50,490 bases of DNA, taken from a virus (Duplodnaviria > Caudoviricetes). The DNA lies in IMG/VR virus record IMGVR_UViG_3300018067_000002, positions 1 to 50,490 of that record; one strand, 5' to 3'. Shown piece after piece: positions 7,945 through 18,731 of this stretch. The number at the start of each line of letters is the position of its first letter. The first letter of the stretch is position 1. Both the position numbers and the translations under genes were made by a program. Under the pieces are notes generated by a model. The model did no database searches. It was not told the DNA's origin and saw only the letters and a list, made by a program, of their open reading frames with translations.

Positions 7945-9803
7945 TGATCGAAAACCACGTTCCAATACCCATTAACGATTTCAATGGTCTGTTCGACCGT
8001 GGTCCAGACGAGGCTATACCTCTCGATCATTTCAGAACTGCTCAGAACCTCAAATACAAGCCGACAGGCTTTTACACAAGGGAAGGCTCCATACTGTCAA
8101 CAACGTGTGGAGCCGTCCTTCGTTTTCACGTATACAAGATCACAGGACAAGCGTCAAGACTGCTTATCCTTTTAACTGGCGGACAGCTCTATGATTCCGC
8201 CAATATGTTGAATCCGATTCTTAATATTCCCACGATGACAGACTTCTCGATGGAAGTCTTTTTCGATAGAGCTTACATTACGCCACACAACGGACTCACC
8301 GGACTTCCTGGTCAGTTCGTTTACTACTACACAGGCTCCGGAACGGCTGTTGTCGCAGGTGGACCCGGACCTGCTATTGCGCCACCAATGGGTATTGCTC
8401 AAGGTGGTGCTGGACATATAGATAAAGGTATCCATGCGTTTGCTGTAGCGTTTGAGACCACAACAGGTTTCGTTACACAGATGGGTGGGTTCACGGGTAT
8501 CGTAACAAGTGGCGAGAAAACTGTCGAACTCTCTGGAATTCCTCTCGGTCCTGCTGGGACCGTAGCTCGTATACTGTTCGCAACTAAGGACGTTGCAGAT
8601 CCGGTAACAGGTCTTTACGATTGGGACTATGCTAATGCAGAATGGTTCTTCGTCCCAGAGGGACGGATCGCAAATAACACCACAACAACTAAATCAGTGT
8701 CGTTCTTCGATGCTGATCTCCAGGACCAAGCAGACTATATCCTTGAACAACTACCCACGATCCCTGCCGGAGTTGGGATCACCGCGTATAAAGGAAGCAT
8801 GGTTGTCTGGGGAGAAGATGCAAACCAATCCACCGTTCGGATCTCCAAGGCAGGACAGCCTGAATCTTTTAACGCAGTCGAAGGCTTCCTCCAAGTCGAA
8901 CCATCTAATGGTGGAGGAGTAAGAAACTGTGTGGAGTTCCGCTCGGCTCTTTACATCCTGAAATCCCAACGGTGCTATGCGACAGTTGCAACCGATGAAG
9001 AAGCGGCGTTCTGGGACGCGCCACTGCTCGACGGTTCCGCTGGAACTGAGTGTCACGGGATCGGAAAGATTTTTGAGCGGAACTCCAACACGGTCGACAA
9101 GTATCTGATTGCCTCTCGTCGTGGCTTGTTGCTCTTTACGGGTAACTTTCAAGAAGAAATCTCTTGGAAGGTGAAAGACATCTGGGGTCGTATTACTCCA
9201 CAATACTTTCACAAAATCCAAGTGATGGTCGACGCAGACAATCAGTTCATCTATGTGTCGTTGCCCATAGATGGTTCAACCGTCACGAACTGTGTTCTCT
9301 TTGCAGACTATTCAGTTAACCTGGATTCTGCAAAGGTCAAGTGGGCAGTCTGGACGTTTCCACACAAGCCTGTTTCGATCGCGCTCGACGTCGACGATGT
9401 CACCAAAGAGATTATCTTTCGATTCGCGCGTGAGGATCAGAACATCTACAGAATCCAGCCGAACGTCTGGAACGATTACGGGATCGCTATCAATACGATC
9501 TGGGAGACTGCACAGACACCGTTCGACTCTAAAGGCGAAGTGTTCCATCACGGAGGCGCGCGCCTTAGAGTCTATGGACAAGGCAATTTAGCTCTCACGG
9601 TCACGACGCTAGACAACGCTGTGGTCGCGCAACTTCCTGCAATCCCGTTGTTTCAGAATCCTGGAGTCTATCCCTTCAGATCATACAACATCCAGAGTGA
9701 GAAGGTTACTCTAAAAGGAACTCTGGACGCTTTTGACGAACACTTAGTTATCACTAAACTCTGGGTGTTTGTTAGACAACTCTGGCTTACGAGACCTCAG
9801 TAA
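7944..9803 (+). CDS. Putative tail nozzle/stabilisation protein (P22 gp10 or tubular B-like)
   Basis: 619 aa, beta-rich, FNGL N-terminal motif, TAATG coupling at both ends. Confidence 0.55.
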   Translation: MIENHVPIPINDFNGLFDRGPDEAIPLDHFRTAQNLKYKPTGFYTREGSILSTTCGAVLRFHVYKITGQASRLLILLTGGQLYDSANMLNPILNIPTMTDFSMEVFFDRAYITPHNGLTGLPGQFVYYYTGSGTAVVAGGPGPAIAPPMGIAQGGAGHIDKGIHAFAVAFETTTGFVTQMGGFTGIVTSGEKTVELSGIPLGPAGTVARILFATKDVADPVTGLYDWDYANAEWFFVPEGRIANNTTTTKSVSFFDADLQDQADYILEQLPTIPAGVGITAYKGSMVVWGEDANQSTVRISKAGQPESFNAVEGFLQVEPSNGGGVRNCVEFRSALYILKSQRCYATVATDEEAAFWDAPLLDGSAGTECHGIGKIFERNSNTVDKYLIASRRGLLLFTGNFQEEISWKVKDIWGRITPQYFHKIQVMVDADNQFIYVSLPIDGSTVTNCVLFADYSVNLDSAKVKWAVWTFPHKPVSIALDVDDVTKEIIFRFAREDQNIYRIQPNVWNDYGIAINTIWETAQTPFDSKGEVFHHGGARLRVYGQGNLALTVTTLDNAVVAQLPAIPLFQNPGVYPFRSYNIQSEKVTLKGTLDAFDEHLVITKLWVFVRQLWLTRPQ

Positions 9804-11248
9804 TGGGCATCCAGAGAGACTCACGGATCGAATCCCTAGGGAACGACGAACGTTCAGTTCTCGTTCTCAAGGAGATTCTCCGTGACTATAACAAGGATGT
9901 TCTTAGGATAAACGATCTTCTTCAGATTGTAAATGACCGCATATCCCCGCCTACGGGTGGGGGTGGTGTCGGTGCATCTCCTGAGCCTCCTAATTTCGCT
10001 GGACAAGTTCTTCCTTTTTCTATCTTTTTGTCATGGGGTTCGCCAGAACCCGCTGCACACATGTTCGAGATTCGTCGTAGCCCAGTTGTAGATTGGGTTA
10101 CGGCATCGTTCGTGACGCGCACTCCGTCATTTACTGTTAACCTTGCGCCTCTGCTCGTAGGATCATATTACTTTTTACTCAAGAGTATCGATGCTCTAGG
10201 TAACTACTCAATTAGCTACACGACAGTTCAATTAACAGTTCTTGCTCCAGGAACTCCTGCTGTTACAGCAACAGTTATTGACAACAACGTTCTTCTGTAT
10301 TGGGATGTTCCACAGACAAGTCATCAAATTGATCGATATAATCTTTACAAGAACGACGTATATTTCGGAACACATCGTGGCACGTTCGTTCCGATCTTTG
10401 AGACAATCTCCGGCACTTATACATACGCAATAGAAGCTGTTGATGTTGCTGGTAACGTAGGGCCAAGAGGGTCAGTAACTACAATTGTTAACCAGCCTCC
10501 AGACTTCGAGCTTGAAGATCAACGTATTACAGACTTGTATGGGACACGAGTTAATGTAGCTCGATTACCAGATGCAACGACTCCGTCTACGCCTACAAGG
10601 AAGTCTAGTCTGTTAGCTTGTGTTGATCTGACCGCTACGTGGGAACAGCATTTTACTTCTAAGTCATGGACGACGATCGAACAACAGATCAACGCTGGCT
10701 ATCCGATCTACATCCAACCGACGCTCTCAACAGGTTCATACGAAGAAGTCTTTGATTACTTAACAGAAATTCATAATACGATTGCGACGATCAATTACCA
10801 GTTTCTTGAGCACGTTGCACAAGTCGGACTTGTTATCAAGTTGGCTTGGTCGATAGACAATGTTACGTTTACTCCGTTCATAATAGGTAACTCTCAATTC
10901 ATACCACATTTTCGATACTTAAAGATGCGCCTCGAGTTTACTTGCGACAGTGATAAGGCACTGGGCGAGTTCTCGATGATTCAGATTACTCTCGACGTCA
11001 AAAAAGAAATGGACTCGGGAGAAATTATAGCTCTTGCAACTGACTTGACTGGAACACCAGTTCTGTTCACTAAGACGTTCAAGGATATCGATTCAATCAC
11101 CTGCACGGCAGATTCGATCGAACCGATTGACGTCATCTACGATTTCACAGACGTGCCCAATCCAACAGGATTCCGCGTCTTTGCAATGGATACCACAGGC
11201 AACCGAGTGACCTATCTCGTGTCGTGGAAGGCGAGAGGTATCACGTAA
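9803..11248 (+). CDS. Tail protein with fibronectin-III-like repeats
   Basis: Two LxWxxP...Y...A(I/V)DxxGN FN3 signatures (KSIDALGNYS, EAVDVAGNVG). Confidence 0.65.
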   Translation: MGIQRDSRIESLGNDERSVLVLKEILRDYNKDVLRINDLLQIVNDRISPPTGGGGVGASPEPPNFAGQVLPFSIFLSWGSPEPAAHMFEIRRSPVVDWVTASFVTRTPSFTVNLAPLLVGSYYFLLKSIDALGNYSISYTTVQLTVLAPGTPAVTATVIDNNVLLYWDVPQTSHQIDRYNLYKNDVYFGTHRGTFVPIFETISGTYTYAIEAVDVAGNVGPRGSVTTIVNQPPDFELEDQRITDLYGTRVNVARLPDATTPSTPTRKSSLLACVDLTATWEQHFTSKSWTTIEQQINAGYPIYIQPTLSTGSYEEVFDYLTEIHNTIATINYQFLEHVAQVGLVIKLAWSIDNVTFTPFIIGNSQFIPHFRYLKMRLEFTCDSDKALGEFSMIQITLDVKKEMDSGEIIALATDLTGTPVLFTKTFKDIDSITCTADSIEPIDVIYDFTDVPNPTGFRVFAMDTTGNRVTYLVSWKARGIT

Positions 11249-12323: not shown

Positions 12324-12511
12324 ATCAACCTTCTCAACTTGATCTTTCTCTTGAAGAAATCTACATAATCGTTGGTGAACTCGAAGTCGTCCGACGCAAA
12401 CTCAACATGCAAGTTCAGGGTTATCTGAAACAAATCGACGAGATGAGTGCAGAGATTACCAGATTGCGAGAGGAAAATGGCCGACTGGCTCAAACCGACA
12501 ATAACGAGTAA
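12320..12511 (+). CDS. Small coiled-coil protein
   Basis: Heptad pattern; ATGA-coupled. Confidence 0.55.
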   Translation: MNQPSQLDLSLEEIYIIVGELEVVRRKLNMQVQGYLKQIDEMSAEITRLREENGRLAQTDNNE

Positions 12512-13148
12512 CTACATCACGTTTGTCGACGAGGTCAAAGCTCGTGATGTTGACGCCATTACTCTGCAAGCTGTAGCCCTTGTTAATCCTCCAATATACG
12601 CCGTCAAATTGGTGCGAATGTCACCGTATCCAAATATCAGGTTTCAGGAGTGGAATGGGACAGCGTTTAACGAGTTGACTCTCTCTATACAAGGTGGAGG
12701 CACAGGCGCGAATTCTCTTGCTGGTCTTGCGTCTAATATGGGTCTGGGAACGATGGCGTATCAGAACTCCAATAACATCAGCGTTACTGGAGGATACCTA
12801 AATGGTGTGAGAATCGACAACCCTACCGTTTACGGGACATTTAATCAAAACTCTGGAGCTTACAATCTTCAGGGTAATATGAGCATTTATAACGTCACTA
12901 ACACTGGTGTCTCGTTCAATGTCTTGACAAATATTCCCAACAACTTTGCTGCTGTAATCCAACATGCTGGTATTCCCAGCCTTGGAGTGGTAATTCGTGC
13001 AGGGACGAGCAAGACAGATCAGTGTTTGAATTTAGAAAATGGAGCCGCAACGATCAACTGGTTGTTGGTTCGTGGCGATGGTGCGATGATATACAACTCC
13101 GCAAATCTAGCCATTCCGGTCGGAACAAATAGATTCGTCCCAGTATAG
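12477..13148 (+). CDS. Putative tail fibre protein
   Basis: RBS gaggaaa then ATG 12477; LSIQGGGTGANS...LGTMAYQN is a typical fibre shaft motif. Confidence 0.6.
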   Translation: MADWLKPTITSNYITFVDEVKARDVDAITLQAVALVNPPIYAVKLVRMSPYPNIRFQEWNGTAFNELTLSIQGGGTGANSLAGLASNMGLGTMAYQNSNNISVTGGYLNGVRIDNPTVYGTFNQNSGAYNLQGNMSIYNVTNTGVSFNVLTNIPNNFAAVIQHAGIPSLGVVIRAGTSKTDQCLNLENGAATINWLLVRGDGAMIYNSANLAIPVGTNRFVPV

Positions 13149-13150
13149 TC

Positions 13151-13978
13151 ATGGCTAAGCTACGTGGCTCTATTTGGATTAACGACAACCAGTTCTGCTA
13201 CATCGATGAATATGATCGAGAGTGGCGCTGGATAGGTCAACCAGTCGGTCCAACTGGTCCTTTAGTTCCAGGATCATTTTGGATGGAGTTAGACGATATC
13301 CGCTACGTGAATCAGGCTGGTAATTATGTCTATCAAATTATTGGACCAGTAATTCAGAATCATCCTACTGCACTTCGTGGTTCAATTTGGATCTCTCAAG
13401 GCTTCTTTCGATGGATTGATCGTTCTAGTAATGAGCGAGTAGCACATCAGGATGTGACCCATACCGATGGTGCTGGTGGACATTTAGACGTTCCTCACAC
13501 TGATACTGGACATGGTGACACTCATACCGATGGAACTCATGGAGACGTCCACACTGACGTTCCTCATAGTGACTTTCATGGTGATGGACATACTGATGTT
13601 CCTCATAGTGATCGTCCTCATACTGATACACACAGCGATGGGTCAATTCATAATGACCAACCAAACTATCACTTTGATTTTAATGACACAATACATAATG
13701 ATGGGGCTGGACATAGTGATATAAATGCACACGGTGACGGTGGAATTCAACACAATGATCACTATGATACTCATAACGATATAATTCATCTTGACGCACC
13801 TACAGTTATTGACCACAACGATCAAGCACATCAAGATTCTCCCGCTCAGGTCGGTCATATAGATTCCTCTCATGGGGATACGCATTCAGATGCTCCACCT
13901 ATAAGCGTCCCGCACCAGGATCACACAGATGCCTCATCAGGCGCGCATCAAGACAATCCTCAGTATATTGGACCATGA
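13151..13978 (+). CDS. His-x-Asp repeat protein (candidate radical SAM substrate / virion appendage)
   Basis: Three N-terminal (R/P)GS(I/F)W repeats, then 31 HxD motifs from residue 99 onward. Confidence 0.85.
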   Translation: MAKLRGSIWINDNQFCYIDEYDREWRWIGQPVGPTGPLVPGSFWMELDDIRYVNQAGNYVYQIIGPVIQNHPTALRGSIWISQGFFRWIDRSSNERVAHQDVTHTDGAGGHLDVPHTDTGHGDTHTDGTHGDVHTDVPHSDFHGDGHTDVPHSDRPHTDTHSDGSIHNDQPNYHFDFNDTIHNDGAGHSDINAHGDGGIQHNDHYDTHNDIIHLDAPTVIDHNDQAHQDSPAQVGHIDSSHGDTHSDAPPISVPHQDHTDASSGAHQDNPQYIGP

Positions 13979-15234
13979 CTATAGAATATTTGCCTGTCGG
14001 CATCGCGTGCAATCTCGGTTGCACTTACTGTTACCAAGATCCTATGAGGGATGCTGGCAATATCAATGTGCCTCGTAATTGGGAACGTGTTAAGGAGCAG
14101 TTGCTTGCCTATGGGAGCAGCTTCTCTGTTTTTGGAGGCGAGCCGTTACTTGCATCTATTGAGCACCTAGAAGAGGTTTGGAAATTTGGATACGAACGTT
14201 TTGGTCAGAATGGAATACAGACAAATGGATCTCTTATTACTGATGCGCATATTGAGCTTTTCAAAAAGTATCAGGTCGGTGTTGGTATATCTATTGATGG
14301 CCCTGGAGTTCTCAACAGTGCTCGTAGCTGCGGTATTGATACTCCAGCTGCTACTGACAGAACCCTGTTCGCTATTAGAAGACTGTGCGACGCTGGGATA
14401 CCTCCTTCCTTAATTATCACTATCCATCCGATCAATGCTGGTGGTGACAGACTGTTAGAGCTACTAGCATGGCTCGATAGCATGGAGAAGATCGGAATCC
14501 AATATATCAACTTTCATATCCTCGAGGTCGAGAAAGGCAAAGAGGATATGATGTTTACTGTGGAAGAAAATACAGACGTCTTTACTCGCCTCTATCTGTG
14601 GTCGAAGGCATCGAAGATGCGAGTTGAGCCGTTCTGTGACATCCGGTCTTTACTGACGGAGATACATCCACATGTCTCTTGTGTTTGGAACCATTGTGAT
14701 CCTGCTACGACGGCCGCTGTCCAGGGTATCGGCCCTGATGGGACGCGCAGCAACTGTGGTAGGACTAACAAGGACGGTGTTAATTGGGTTAAAGGGGATA
14801 CACCGGGTTTCGAGCGCTATCTCCTCTTGCGCCAGACGCCCCAAGAAGTTGGAGGTTGTAAAGGTTGCTCCTTCTTCATTTTTTGTAAAGGACAGTGTCC
14901 TGGAACTGCTATCGACGGAGACTGGCGAAACAGAACAAGAGACTGCAAGACGTGGTATGCACTCTTTGAACGAATTGAAATAGACGTCGTTCGAGACGGT
15001 CTTGTTCCAATTTCGTTAAATTGTTCTCTTAAGTCTGAAATAGAAGACGACCTTGTAAGACAGTGGTCAGGCGAAAACGCTCATCATGCAGACGTTCCGC
15101 ATGGTGACGTTCCTCATGGAGACGATCACGGAGACTCTCCTCACGGAGATGGACACTACGATACGAATCCAAAGCCGAGACAAGGTATTCCAGGAGTATG
15201 GCTAGATGAACCGCCTAAACTTTTCTCTTCCTGA
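13975..15234 (+). CDS. Radical SAM/SPASM-domain maturase-like enzyme with HxD tail
   Basis: CNLGCTYC (CxxxCxxC), GGEP, QTNG, ISIDGP; SPASM cysteines SCVWNHC...PDGTRSNC...CKGCSFFIFCKGQC...DC; six HxD motifs at the C-terminus. Confidence 0.92.
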   Translation: MTIEYLPVGIACNLGCTYCYQDPMRDAGNINVPRNWERVKEQLLAYGSSFSVFGGEPLLASIEHLEEVWKFGYERFGQNGIQTNGSLITDAHIELFKKYQVGVGISIDGPGVLNSARSCGIDTPAATDRTLFAIRRLCDAGIPPSLIITIHPINAGGDRLLELLAWLDSMEKIGIQYINFHILEVEKGKEDMMFTVEENTDVFTRLYLWSKASKMRVEPFCDIRSLLTEIHPHVSCVWNHCDPATTAAVQGIGPDGTRSNCGRTNKDGVNWVKGDTPGFERYLLLRQTPQEVGGCKGCSFFIFCKGQCPGTAIDGDWRNRTRDCKTWYALFERIEIDVVRDGLVPISLNCSLKSEIEDDLVRQWSGENAHHADVPHGDVPHGDDHGDSPHGDGHYDTNPKPRQGIPGVWLDEPPKLFSS

Positions 15235-16572: not shown

Positions 16573-16959
16573 ATGAACACCTTGCGCGCCTATCAGCCGT
16601 CAGATCTTGCTGCTATCAGTAAGATTTGGGAAGACCATCACTCGTCCTTTTACGGTTTGCCAGATCGTAGGGCTGCTGTTATTGACGCCGTCGTCGAAAA
16701 CGATGGCAAGATCATAGGCTACGGACAGGTCAGACTGTTTGCTGAAGCTATGCTCTTTCTTGATATGGACGCGCCTCTGCGGTCAAGGATACAGGCGTTA
16801 CAACAGTTGATGCGTGAGGCTTTTCGTGGGACAGAACGTGCTGGTCTACGAGAGATTTACGCATTTATTCAAGACCCTGACTTCTCCTTATTAATGCAAA
16901 AGCATTTCCATTTTGTGGCAGCCGACAAACCCGGTGAGCTGCTCGTAAAGGAGCTATGA
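16573..16959 (+). CDS. GNAT-fold acetyltransferase-like protein
   Basis: LRAYQPSDLAAI...VVENDGKIIGYG; sits before the ejection proteins, as in P22/T7-like phages. Confidence 0.55.
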   Translation: MNTLRAYQPSDLAAISKIWEDHHSSFYGLPDRRAAVIDAVVENDGKIIGYGQVRLFAEAMLFLDMDAPLRSRIQALQQLMREAFRGTERAGLREIYAFIQDPDFSLLMQKHFHFVAADKPGELLVKEL

Positions 16960-18281
16960 TGGGTGGAAGCAAAACGAATAAGCAGAATCAGGCAAATCAG
17001 ACCCAGAACAACGCCTATCAGACCCAGTTCGAGAACGAGCAGCAGCAACGGTCGAAAGAGGCGTATGACCGCTCTAACACAGCGTGGGGCGGAGCCAACG
17101 ATACGTATCAAAACTTCGCAAAAGGCGGAGGCAAAGAGTTGCTCGACGGCATGGGTAACTACCAAGCCGGTGGCGACGGCGGAGCGGCTGGCGATCCGCG
17201 CTTCGGTGAAGTCGAAGGTTCGTATCGGAACTTCATGAACACTGGTGGCGTGGATACAGGCAGGTTCAATCAGTTCCAAGGGAACCTCCTCGACATTGGA
17301 GCCACAGGTGGATGGGATCAGGCTGCGCGTGACAACGTCAACAGATCGATAGCTGGCTACCAGAATTTCGCGGACACTGGAGGAGTCAGTGCCGAAGATC
17401 AAAACCGAATGCGCGGCATGGGTATTTACGACGAGTGGTCAAAAACCGGCGGCGTATCAGATGCTGATAAAGCTAATATCCGTGCTCGAGGCAACTCGGT
17501 TATCCCCGCATTCTACAATCGAGTACGAGAAGAAAGCAACAGGCTCGGTCGTGTGCAGGGTGGTGGAGGACCTGGACAAGCAGCACTGATGTCCCGACTC
17601 GCCCGCGATCAATCGAGAGGCGCACAGAGCGCTGCGCTCCAGACTGAGGGCGGACTAGCTGATACGATCCGTTTAGGCCAGAAGTGGGGCACTGAGGGGA
17701 TGGAACGGTCTGAGGCTGGGCTGCAAGAATTGCTCTCCAAGAATAAGCTCGCTGGCATGGGCGGCGTAGCAGACGCTACAGGTTTGATGGCAAACTCGAT
17801 TGCTCAGAATCGGACTGCTGCGTCAGCTGCTGGAGGTGGCAATGAAATCGGAATGCAAGGACTCATTTCCGGAAACAAACTCCAGGGAACTCGGGGACTT
17901 GAGGGAATGGCTGAGTCATCAGCTGCACGAGGGGCAGCTTCTAGTAACGCTGCTGCTGCAGACGCGAGATGGAGAGCTTCATTCCTTGCAGATAATATGC
18001 TTGCCGGAGCAGGTGGGCTCCGTGGTCTCAGAACTGATGTCCCCGGAGAAGTTGCTCTCTACGATCAGAACCGCCTCAACAGCCGACAGATTTGGAACCA
18101 AGGGAATCAGATAAATCAGCAACCCCAAGGCGGAGGAACTGATTGGGGCCAAGTCGCTGGAGCCGGAGCTAACGCGGCTGCAACATACTTCGGTGGTCAG
18201 ACAGGCAACACCGGAGTCAACGGTAGACCGAGAAACCCCTACGGCTACGACCAAGCCGAAGGCTATTACGGACCTGGTTAA
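16956..18281 (+). CDS. Putative DNA ejection/internal virion protein
   Basis: MGGSK start; Gly/Gln/Ala/Asn-rich. Confidence 0.55.
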   Translation: MMGGSKTNKQNQANQTQNNAYQTQFENEQQQRSKEAYDRSNTAWGGANDTYQNFAKGGGKELLDGMGNYQAGGDGGAAGDPRFGEVEGSYRNFMNTGGVDTGRFNQFQGNLLDIGATGGWDQAARDNVNRSIAGYQNFADTGGVSAEDQNRMRGMGIYDEWSKTGGVSDADKANIRARGNSVIPAFYNRVREESNRLGRVQGGGGPGQAALMSRLARDQSRGAQSAALQTEGGLADTIRLGQKWGTEGMERSEAGLQELLSKNKLAGMGGVADATGLMANSIAQNRTAASAAGGGNEIGMQGLISGNKLQGTRGLEGMAESSAARGAASSNAAAADARWRASFLADNMLAGAGGLRGLRTDVPGEVALYDQNRLNSRQIWNQGNQINQQPQGGGTDWGQVAGAGANAAATYFGGQTGNTGVNGRPRNPYGYDQAEGYYGPG

Positions 18282-18284
18282 GTC

Positions 18285-18731
18285 ATGGGATTCTGGAAAA
18301 AGTTCGCCAAAATCGCCATACCTATCGGAGCAGGAGCAGCGACACTTTTCACCGGAGGTGCGGCTGCTCCACTCCTAGGCATGGCTCTCGGTGCGGGTTC
18401 CGGAGCGGCAATGGGCGCTCTAAACGGTCAGGGCTGGAAAGGCTCCCTGATCAACGCTGGTATCGGAGGTGCGCTCGGTGGAATCGGCGGTGGCGCACTC
18501 AAAGGCATGGGCGGACTTGGCAAGAATCTGACAAGTGCAGCCAAGTATGCTCCGTCTGCTGTCAAAGCTGCACAAGGACTTGCCGGTGGACCTGCACAAC
18601 AGCAAGTCGCAGGCATGGCAGGTCCGTCACCAGTCCAAGTTGGTGGCGCACAGGGCTATCTCAATCCACTCGGTTTACAGGCACAGCGACGAACAGATTT
18701 AGCAGGAATGGGGACGAGACAATATGCCTAA
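18285..18731 (+). CDS. Putative ejection (pilot) protein with Gly-zipper segments
   Basis: MGFWKKFAK followed by GxxxG-rich hydrophobic stretches. Confidence 0.55.
   Translation: MGFWKKFAKIAIPIGAGAATLFTGGAAAPLLGMALGAGSGAAMGALNGQGWKGSLINAGIGGALGGIGGGALKGMGGLGKNLTSAAKYAPSAVKAAQGLAGGPAQQQVAGMAGPSPVQVGGAQGYLNPLGLQAQRRTDLAGMGTRQYA

Follow-up and report, generated by a model that had tools for sequence, protein, structure and literature searches.

The window analysed here is the complete 50,490-bp IMG/VR virus record IMGVR_UViG_3300018067_000002 (Duplodnaviria; Caudoviricetes), whose ends carry direct terminal repeats. It contains a cassette of three overlapping plus-strand genes, encoding a repeat protein, a radical SAM/SPASM enzyme (rSAM) and a DUF483-like/methyltransferase protein (Table 1), and our subject is a run of six His-x-Asp (HxD) motifs in the C-terminal tail of the rSAM. 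The safest statement of our finding is that a triceptide-like, probably protein-stapling enzyme bears here a conserved appendage, modelled as disordered, that mimics its substrate.

A three-gene cassette built around a radical SAM enzyme

The rSAM start overlaps the stop of the repeat-protein gene by 4 nucleotides (nt), and the last 29 nt of the rSAM gene (15206-15234) overlap the start of the DUF483-like/methyltransferase gene in the +1 frame. These overlaps suggest that synthesis of the three proteins is coupled. Judging from the reading frames, a frameshift within the 29-nt overlap would, hypothetically, regenerate an rSAM-DUF483 fusion. Comparison of the cassette DNA with named phages gave no match.

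Table 1. Features of the cassette and its downstream flank, in window coordinates (aa, amino acids; ORF, open reading frame; AF2, AlphaFold2; pLDDT, predicted local distance difference test)
Feature	Positions	Strand	Basis
Repeat protein, 275 aa, presumed main substrate	13151..13978	+	ORF; homologues adjoin the enzyme in viral loci
Radical SAM/SPASM enzyme (rSAM), 419 aa	13975..15234	+	PF04055, E 2e-13; AF2 pLDDT 87.4
Radical SAM [4Fe-4S] motif CX3CX2C (C12, C16, C19)	14008..14031	+	Sequence; inside the PF04055 match
SPASM cysteines C236, C241, C261, C295, C298, C304, C308, C324 and invariant D316-W-R-N	14680..14946	+	121-sequence alignment
Six-HxD run, residues 371-396	15085..15165	+	Sequence, homologues, AF2 pLDDT <50 at 372-388
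Terminal motif G-I-P-G-V-W-L-D-E-P-P..., 3' of the HxD run	15184..15234	+	Homologue tails; AF2 block means 63 and 75 (last two blocks)
AGGAG, likely ribosome-binding site for the DUF483-like/methyltransferase gene	15192..15196	+	9 nt 5' of the ATG; role inferred
Putative DUF483-like domain (~1-275) fused to class I SAM methyltransferase domain (~282-451), 451 aa	15206..16561	+	Clusters, homologues, complex model
128-aa protein, no family match	16573..16959	+	Homologues in close viral loci

The Radical_SAM match of the enzyme scores 51.3 bits against a cut-off of 29.5. Beyond it lies a seven-cysteine SPASM motif, the pattern for two auxiliary clusters; its cysteines, from C241 to C324, are invariant in 121 sequences, as is C236. 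Among NCBIfam models a cyclophane-forming peptide maturase, AmcB, came first (E 6.8e-23), followed by DynA and anSME, then DarW, YhhB and GrrM/OscB, with FxsB and XyeB lower. Bit scores stood at 81.2 against a curated cut-off of 425 for AmcB, 55.6 against 445 for YhhB, 48.4 against 310 for GrrM/OscB, 37 against 370 for FxsB and 32.9 against 450 for XyeB. Among solved structures, a sequence search matched anSME and the radical SAM domain of ChlB, and a Foldseek search with the AF2 model (predicted template modelling score 0.83) matched the same two folds equally (anSME 4k39, E 1.2e-15; ChlB 9gm3, E 8.7e-15, template modelling (TM) score 0.63/0.70). With its best NCBIfam matches far under the curated cut-offs, the rSAM is a new branch of anSME-like SPASM enzymes that lies outside any named family.

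The enzyme's tail holds a run of HxD motifs modelled as disordered

In the rSAM frame the run reads H-A-D-V-P-H-G-D-V-P-H-G-D-D-H-G-D-S-P-H-G-D-G-H-Y-D-(T). An earlier note on this DNA had described six HxD motifs 3' of the SPASM domain and a DVPH spacer common to the tail and the upstream protein, and translation bears out both: one HAD, four HGD and one HYD triplet fill residues 371-396, and DVPH occurs three times in the upstream protein. The run begins 46 residues past the last SPASM cysteine, C324, after a helix modelled at residues 350-365. It is not there by chance, since 5000 shuffles of the 419-aa protein placed at most three HxD in any 26-residue window, against the six observed. Two adjoining 15-nt units of the tail differ at just 2 of 15 bases. 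Synonymous codons nevertheless vary between units (CAT/CAC, GGT/GGA, GAC/GAT), which argues that the run is maintained at the protein level and is not merely fresh DNA slippage. In the AF2 model pLDDT drops below 50 across residues 372-388 and is about 75 for the last ten residues, and the run is predicted to be a flexible, disordered segment.

The run is followed, in most viral relatives, by a short hydrophobic end motif, G-[IV]-P/E-x-[VT]-[WFIL]-[LI]. With the last position dropped, this pattern matches 58 of the 106 tails that extend more than six residues past their last HxD, and two relatives (P0074 and P0078) have lost the run and kept the end motif. Its Pro-Gly-Val codons contain the AGGAG of Table 1, so its conservation may partly serve translation of the next gene. 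We also considered the end motif as a further aromatic-x-Asp/Asn site. Such a unit occurs in 22 of the 106 tails (shuffle mean 7.9, maximum 18), and we rejected it as a defining feature because Ile or Leu often stands in the aromatic position.

The tail is retained across a large viral clade

The earlier note had tied its reading of the tail to conservation in homologues, and on this point the reading clearly stands. We took the best 120 of 4222 database homologues, which are 47-92% identical to the window enzyme and 119 of which have a recognisable SPASM end. At least two HxD follow the last SPASM cysteine in 110 of these 119, and at least three in 103; nine enzymes have none, seven have two, six have three, 29 have four, 24 have five, 28 have six and 16 have seven. 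Density rises from 0.21 HxD per 100 aa in the core to 5.80 after the SPASM domain. Since most relatives keep it, the tail appears, on this comparison, to be a real, selected segment with a function.

To follow its history, we built an unrooted FastTree phylogeny of 207 enzyme cores, 125 with a tail and 82 without, from an alignment that excluded the tail columns. Tail presence maps onto this tree with 15 changes, whereas 200 label shuffles required 54-72 (mean 64.6); in a second set, none of 500 shuffles was as low as 15, and well-supported branches force at least five changes. The tail is present in 95 of 97 rows of the window's viral clade and in 22 of 88 rows of a mainly cellular clade. A deep group (L028, L029 and L031) also has tails, the enzymes of L028-L031 being down to ~32% identical, and so do the rSAMs of the cultured Thermus phages Cumys and phiLo. 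Among 80 genome loci from many bacterial phyla and one archaeon, with enzymes 44-52% identical, 17 enzymes carry a tail. The tail has thus been retained for long in one large viral clade and has turned over repeatedly elsewhere; because the tree is unrooted and comes from FastTree only, gains and losses are indistinguishable on it.

The neighbouring repeat protein carries a dense array of the same motif

The repeat protein upstream of the enzyme carries 31 HxD in residues ~99-275 and ends in a conserved ...P-x-Y-I-G-P. Its residues 1-~100 (13151-13450) bear hairpin motifs of the G-S-x-W-[IV] type, and viral partner proteins, Cumys_13 of phage Cumys among them, clearly show three hairpin repeats (G-S-x-W-[IV]-x-G ... 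[FL]-x-[YF]-[IV]-D). For this N-terminal domain neither a fold nor a family emerged (ESM Atlas scores at most 0.78, TM at most 0.40), and Pfam, NCBIfam and PHROGs gave no match for the whole protein. ORFs in the compared loci were called mechanically; one with at least 12 HxD is present in 43 of the 80 genome loci.

Several partner arrays depart from His-x-Asp in an instructive way. The L018 partner (1163-2200) has 37 Phe-x-Asn units (T-P-F-D/S-N-x) in its place, the L026 array mixes 17 Trp-x-Asp with 21 His-x-Asp, and 13 Tyr-x-Asp and 16 His-x-Asn occur in the arrays of L021 and L022, respectively. From these sequences, the conserved property of the system's motif appears to be aromatic-x-Asp/Asn. 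The Phe, Trp and Asn substitutes cannot bind metal, so what the arrays conserve is not a capacity for metal binding. Three-residue cyclophane (triceptide) links join an aromatic residue at i to the C-beta at i+2, and those described include Trp-Asn/Asp, Tyr-Asp, His-Ala and His-Arg (PMC11002830). The arrays, with their aromatic residue at i and Asp or Asn at i+2, show the pattern of triceptide enzymes, which points to a triceptide-like substrate.

An ORF with an HExxH motif lies between the DUF483 and rSAM genes of L009 (3054-3989), with a counterpart in L010 and a partial copy in L008. It matches the aKG-HExxH-type peptide beta-hydroxylase model TIGR04267 with E 1.4e-7 and 31.7 bits, under the cut-off of 40, and BLAST finds homologues in 23 of the 80 genome loci. 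Enzymes of this type accompany cyclophane synthases, as the title of Morishita et al. 2024 states.

The arrays also occur in other protein settings. Two actinobacterial HxD arrays (L034:3361-4257 and L048:5253-5948) begin, judged by eye, with a putative twin-arginine signal, RRxLL followed by a hydrophobic stretch, which would suit cytoplasmic modification ahead of export. In three bacterial loci (L037:1894-5997, L041:595-5991 and L042:2549-5521) the array forms the C-terminus of a 900-1900-aa multidomain protein and has a longer period of ~9 residues (x-I-P-H-G-D-x-x-x); the L037 partner has tachylectin and tectonin domains.

We then compared the units themselves, using pools of 585 HxD units in the tails of 125 enzymes and of 1669 units in 57 partner ORFs. 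Tail and partner share a period of 4-5 residues, a Pro at position -1 (31% of tail units, 24% of partner units) and an Asp at -3 (38% and 29%). Position 1 of the tail is nearly always His, with 585 HxD against 69 other aromatic-x-Asp/Asn units, part of which lie in the terminal stretch 3' of the run (22 counted there). At the DNA level, tail and partner gene share repeats of 22-36 nt at 61-86% identity, the 22-nt matches reaching 82-86%. As proof that the tail was copied from the partner gene these repeats were set aside, being too short to separate a copy from shared codons.

A DUF483-like protein is predicted to bind the enzyme at the base of the tail

The earlier note had tied the enzyme functionally to a single partner gene. 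The tie to the upstream repeat protein stands, but a third conserved partner, the DUF483-like/methyltransferase protein, had been overlooked: the viral loci encode a DUF483-like homologue, as do 75 of the 80 genome loci. Its DUF483-like domain has invariant C134, C135, H181, C184, C188 and H228. The DUF483 assignment of the window protein is a lead, drawn from Atlas clusters with 16-43% PF04467, and no Pfam match appears at E 0.01; a structure search with the 451-aa model found methyltransferase folds only, over residues ~280-451. In 11 of the 80 genome loci DUF483 is fused to the enzyme in one ORF, directly after the rSAM C-terminus, and rSAM-DUF483 fusions are also given, from InterPro, in a preprint on Thermus phages (bioRxiv 10.1101/2024.08.14.607894).

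A model of the rSAM-DUF483 complex scored 0.81, the best of three controls 0.01; at least 34% of contacts are common to the runs, and partner pLDDT is at least 83. The mark for a complex is attained by 58 of 80 solved complexes and by 2 of 110 mismatched pairs, a calibration that is rough here because we used our own alignments. The modelling supports a predicted binding of the two proteins. On the rSAM side, the predicted interface comprises residues 23 and 26-29, just past the cluster loop, together with 266-294, 314-319 (the invariant D-W-R-N) and 365-366; on the DUF483 side it comprises 4-22 and 227-250, including the invariant W16, H228, G229 and D245. In this model the tail starts, at residue 371, at the edge of the interface. 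The confident interface includes no tail residue past 366, which is not evidence against tail contact.

What the tail may do

The chemistry we consider most likely, by comparison with triceptide enzymes, is that the rSAM and the DUF483-like/methyltransferase protein form three-residue cross-links from the His ring to the Asp C-beta at the ~31 aromatic-x-Asp triplets of the upstream protein. The tail would visit the enzyme's groove in cis, and either would itself be cyclised or would occupy the groove and keep it shut until the multi-motif substrate takes its place. A role as tethered substrate or pseudo-substrate, visiting the enzyme's own peptide groove in cis, is suggested because the tail repeats the unit of the substrate and begins where rSAM and DUF483 are predicted to meet; we give this reading slightly less than an even chance. 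In a bolder form of it, the enzyme would be its own first substrate and cyclise the His-Gly-Asp units of its tail, and so be the first radical SAM maturase to modify itself. Once stapled, the tail would serve as a rigid handle for binding metal or the array, hold the enzyme and DUF483 to the fibre protein while ~30 motifs are stapled, and perhaps bring the enzyme into the virion. We regard this bolder form as unlikely.

Several observations weigh against a tethered substrate or pseudo-substrate. All named cyclophane-forming families score below their curated cut-offs with this enzyme. AF2 shows no docked state of the tail, the run having pLDDT below 50. Gly takes the middle position in 400 of 548 tail units (73%) and in 90 of 485 partner units (18-19%), a bias suggesting that the tail is constrained in a way that a real substrate is not, and one that suits a metal site or a flexible tether equally. 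One viral group of 12 tree rows lacks the tail throughout, as do 63 of the 80 genome loci, including all 11 rSAM-DUF483 fused forms, and tail-less enzymes adjoin dense HxD arrays in L013, L047, L062 and L074. The tail is therefore dispensable in evolution. The same four loci rule out a further idea, that tail presence tracks gene order or array density. The Gly bias also qualifies the earlier note's claim that the tail is substrate-like and tied to the upstream repeat protein. Shared unit architecture, the 4-nt overlap and a pairing that recurs in viral and cellular loci uphold that claim, but the middle residue does not follow the partner's. On the sequences compared, the tail appears to be a stereotyped His-Gly-Asp version of the motif and not a plain copy of the partner repeats; since the Gly preference differs, it is not a recent copy of the partner gene.

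His-x-Asp is half of a 2-His-1-carboxylate metal motif, and His-rich tails occur on metallochaperones. The His/Asp pairs might thus chelate Fe(II), Zn(II) or Ni(II), whether supplying or protecting the three Fe-S clusters or forming a bridge to a metal-binding array on the partner, and substrate likeness would arise merely because tail and partner are both arrays of metal ligands. His and Asp are strictly kept, position 1 of the tail is almost always His, and Gly (73%) and Pro give flexible turns, all of which would suit a metal site. The arrays of sister lineages, however, swap His for Phe or Trp and Asp for Asn, residues incapable of binding metal, and the tail retains the partner's exact unit, with Pro at -1 and a period of 4-5, which a generic His-rich tail does not need. 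Metal binding is compatible with substrate mimicry, and as the explanation of the tail we find it rather unlikely. The tail might instead bind the partner array or the DUF483-like protein, for processivity or to hold together a split two-enzyme complex, as a functional remnant of the linker in fused forms. Where DUF483 directly follows the rSAM C-terminus the tail is absent (0 of 11 loci, against 17 of the 69 others), the tail starts at the predicted interface, the three genes overlap by 4 and 29 nt, and the terminal motif persists in two relatives without the run. Yet these are small numbers that ignore relatedness, most unfused cellular enzymes also lack a tail, and the linkers of the fused forms contain no HxD; a role in tethering or co-assembly seems to us rather unlikely.

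Finally, the run might have no motif-specific function and be a low-complexity spacer, grown by slippage or taken from the partner gene as a copy, that a free C-terminus tolerates, with an end motif shaped by the start and ribosome-binding site of the next gene. The 2-in-15 difference between adjoining units, the 82-86% identity of the 22-nt tail-partner matches, a unit number that ranges from 2 to 7, the AGGAG within the terminal motif and the ~15 losses or gains of the tail are all consistent with such a history. It fares badly elsewhere: His, Gly and Asp are kept while spacers and synonymous codons vary, in enzymes down to ~32% identity (L028-L031); the tail is kept in all but two of the 97 rows of one clade; its Gly preference is unlike the partner's; and the overlap with the next gene spans only the last nine codons, not the HxD run. 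We consider an absence of motif-specific function very improbable. Self-modification, gating, tethering and metal binding are inseparable by computation, and all four remain candidates.

Relation to known systems

The tethered-substrate or pseudo-substrate reading leans on the triceptide synthases (XncB, OscB, MscB, YxdB, HaaB and YhhB; ChlB). Like the window enzyme, they combine a radical SAM domain with a full SPASM domain and have no N-terminal recognition domain; the fold resembles ChlB 9gm3, but anSME to the same degree, and an aKG-HExxH-type hydroxylase homologue is present in loci related to the window's. Their substrates consist of aromatic-x-X3 triplets (PMC11002830), to which the 31 HxD of the window partner correspond. 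The window system differs in that its enzyme reaches no curated family cut-off, its substrate is a whole protein of 275 aa (up to ~1900 aa in relatives) with tens of motifs, encoded in a phage tail-gene block, and it has an obligatory DUF483-like partner. To our knowledge, no described triceptide synthase carries substrate motifs on the enzyme itself. We found no description of a His-x-Asp link in the parts of the triceptide literature surveyed, and our literature searches returned no paper on His-x-Asp repeats, such a tail or phage triceptides, although the precursor lists of the JACS 2022 triceptide landscape may include the family. The anSME enzymes (4k36-4k39), the best match among solved structures in both sequence and fold, oxidise one Cys or Ser of a sulfatase, whereas the window has no sulfatase and its enzyme sits beside a repeat protein.

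The closest parallel in cultured phages is the 'rSAM module' of the Thermus phages Cumys and phiMa, in which the trio recurs in unchanged order behind genes for baseplate and fibre. The rSAMs of Cumys, phiMa and phiLo are 49-50% identical to the window enzyme. In Cumys, the baseplate genes are followed by a tail collar fibre, a hypothetical protein, Cumys_13, the rSAM (Cumys_12) and a DUF483 protein, and Cumys_13 is an HxD array protein with N-terminal G-S-x-W hairpin repeats like those of the window. The Cumys rSAM has the C-terminus ...HGDYTDHGDAPHGDHWDG; the HxD tail of the phiLo enzyme is longer. The preprint on these phages lists two module proteins as of 'unknown function' and proposes DNA modification (bioRxiv 10.1101/2024.08.14.607894). 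The passages of the preprint available to us mention neither His-x-Asp repeats nor the tail, and 'histidine' has no occurrences in them (bioRxiv 10.1101/2024.08.14.607894).

Two further systems invite comparison. In borosins (for example OphMA) a methyltransferase is fused to its own core peptide, and the earlier note had likened the tail to such a fused precursor. The six substrate-type HxD on the enzyme's own C-terminus justify the comparison, but the analogy is loose: enzyme class and chemistry are different, the window has a separate and much larger substrate protein with 31 motifs, and self-modification is conjectural here. In the antiphage system HXS (HxsA-D), radical SAM enzymes mature a His-x-Ser repeat protein, which bears a covalent modification on one repeat (PMC13128918). 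HXS resembles the window cassette in that a whole repeat protein is matured by such chemistry; it differs in having two rSAMs (HxsB and HxsC) plus HxsD, no DUF483, five repeats, a +8 Da change at one site and a role in bacterial defence (PMC13128918). The window cassette has a single rSAM and His-x-Asp triplets, and no Hxs family appears in the best 25 of 50 NCBIfam matches; HXS is an analogue and not a relative.

Genes flanking the cassette

Tail-type genes precede the cassette, with a match to phrog_1727 (tail and host specificity) at 9803-11248 and a weak tail-fibre match at 12447-13148. Downstream, the 128-aa protein, for which Pfam, NCBIfam and PHROGs gave no match, has homologues 35-71% identical in eight viral loci (L001-L007 and L025). 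Positions 16956-18731 encode a 441-aa Gln/Gly/Asn-rich protein that is kept in related viral loci, then a 148-aa Gly-rich protein with a weak Gly-zipper match (E 0.0044).

Implications

This analysis adds a bias towards Gly within the units of the tail, a count on the tree of changes in tail presence, a tally of rSAM-DUF483 fusions, a predicted interface at the base of the tail and a likely ribosome-binding site in the end motif. The trio of an aromatic-x-Asp/Asn repeat protein, an rSAM and a DUF483-like protein is widespread and includes cultured Thermus phages, and the Phe-x-Asn partner of L018 offers a natural variant useful for probing its chemistry. If the proposed chemistry is correct, the sole printed suggestion that we found for the Thermus-phage module, DNA modification, would be corrected. 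Phages and many bacteria would then staple whole proteins at dozens of sites, with a ring-forming chemistry so far known from small peptide natural products alone, and the built-in substrate-like tail would be a new way to gate, prime or tether a radical SAM enzyme.

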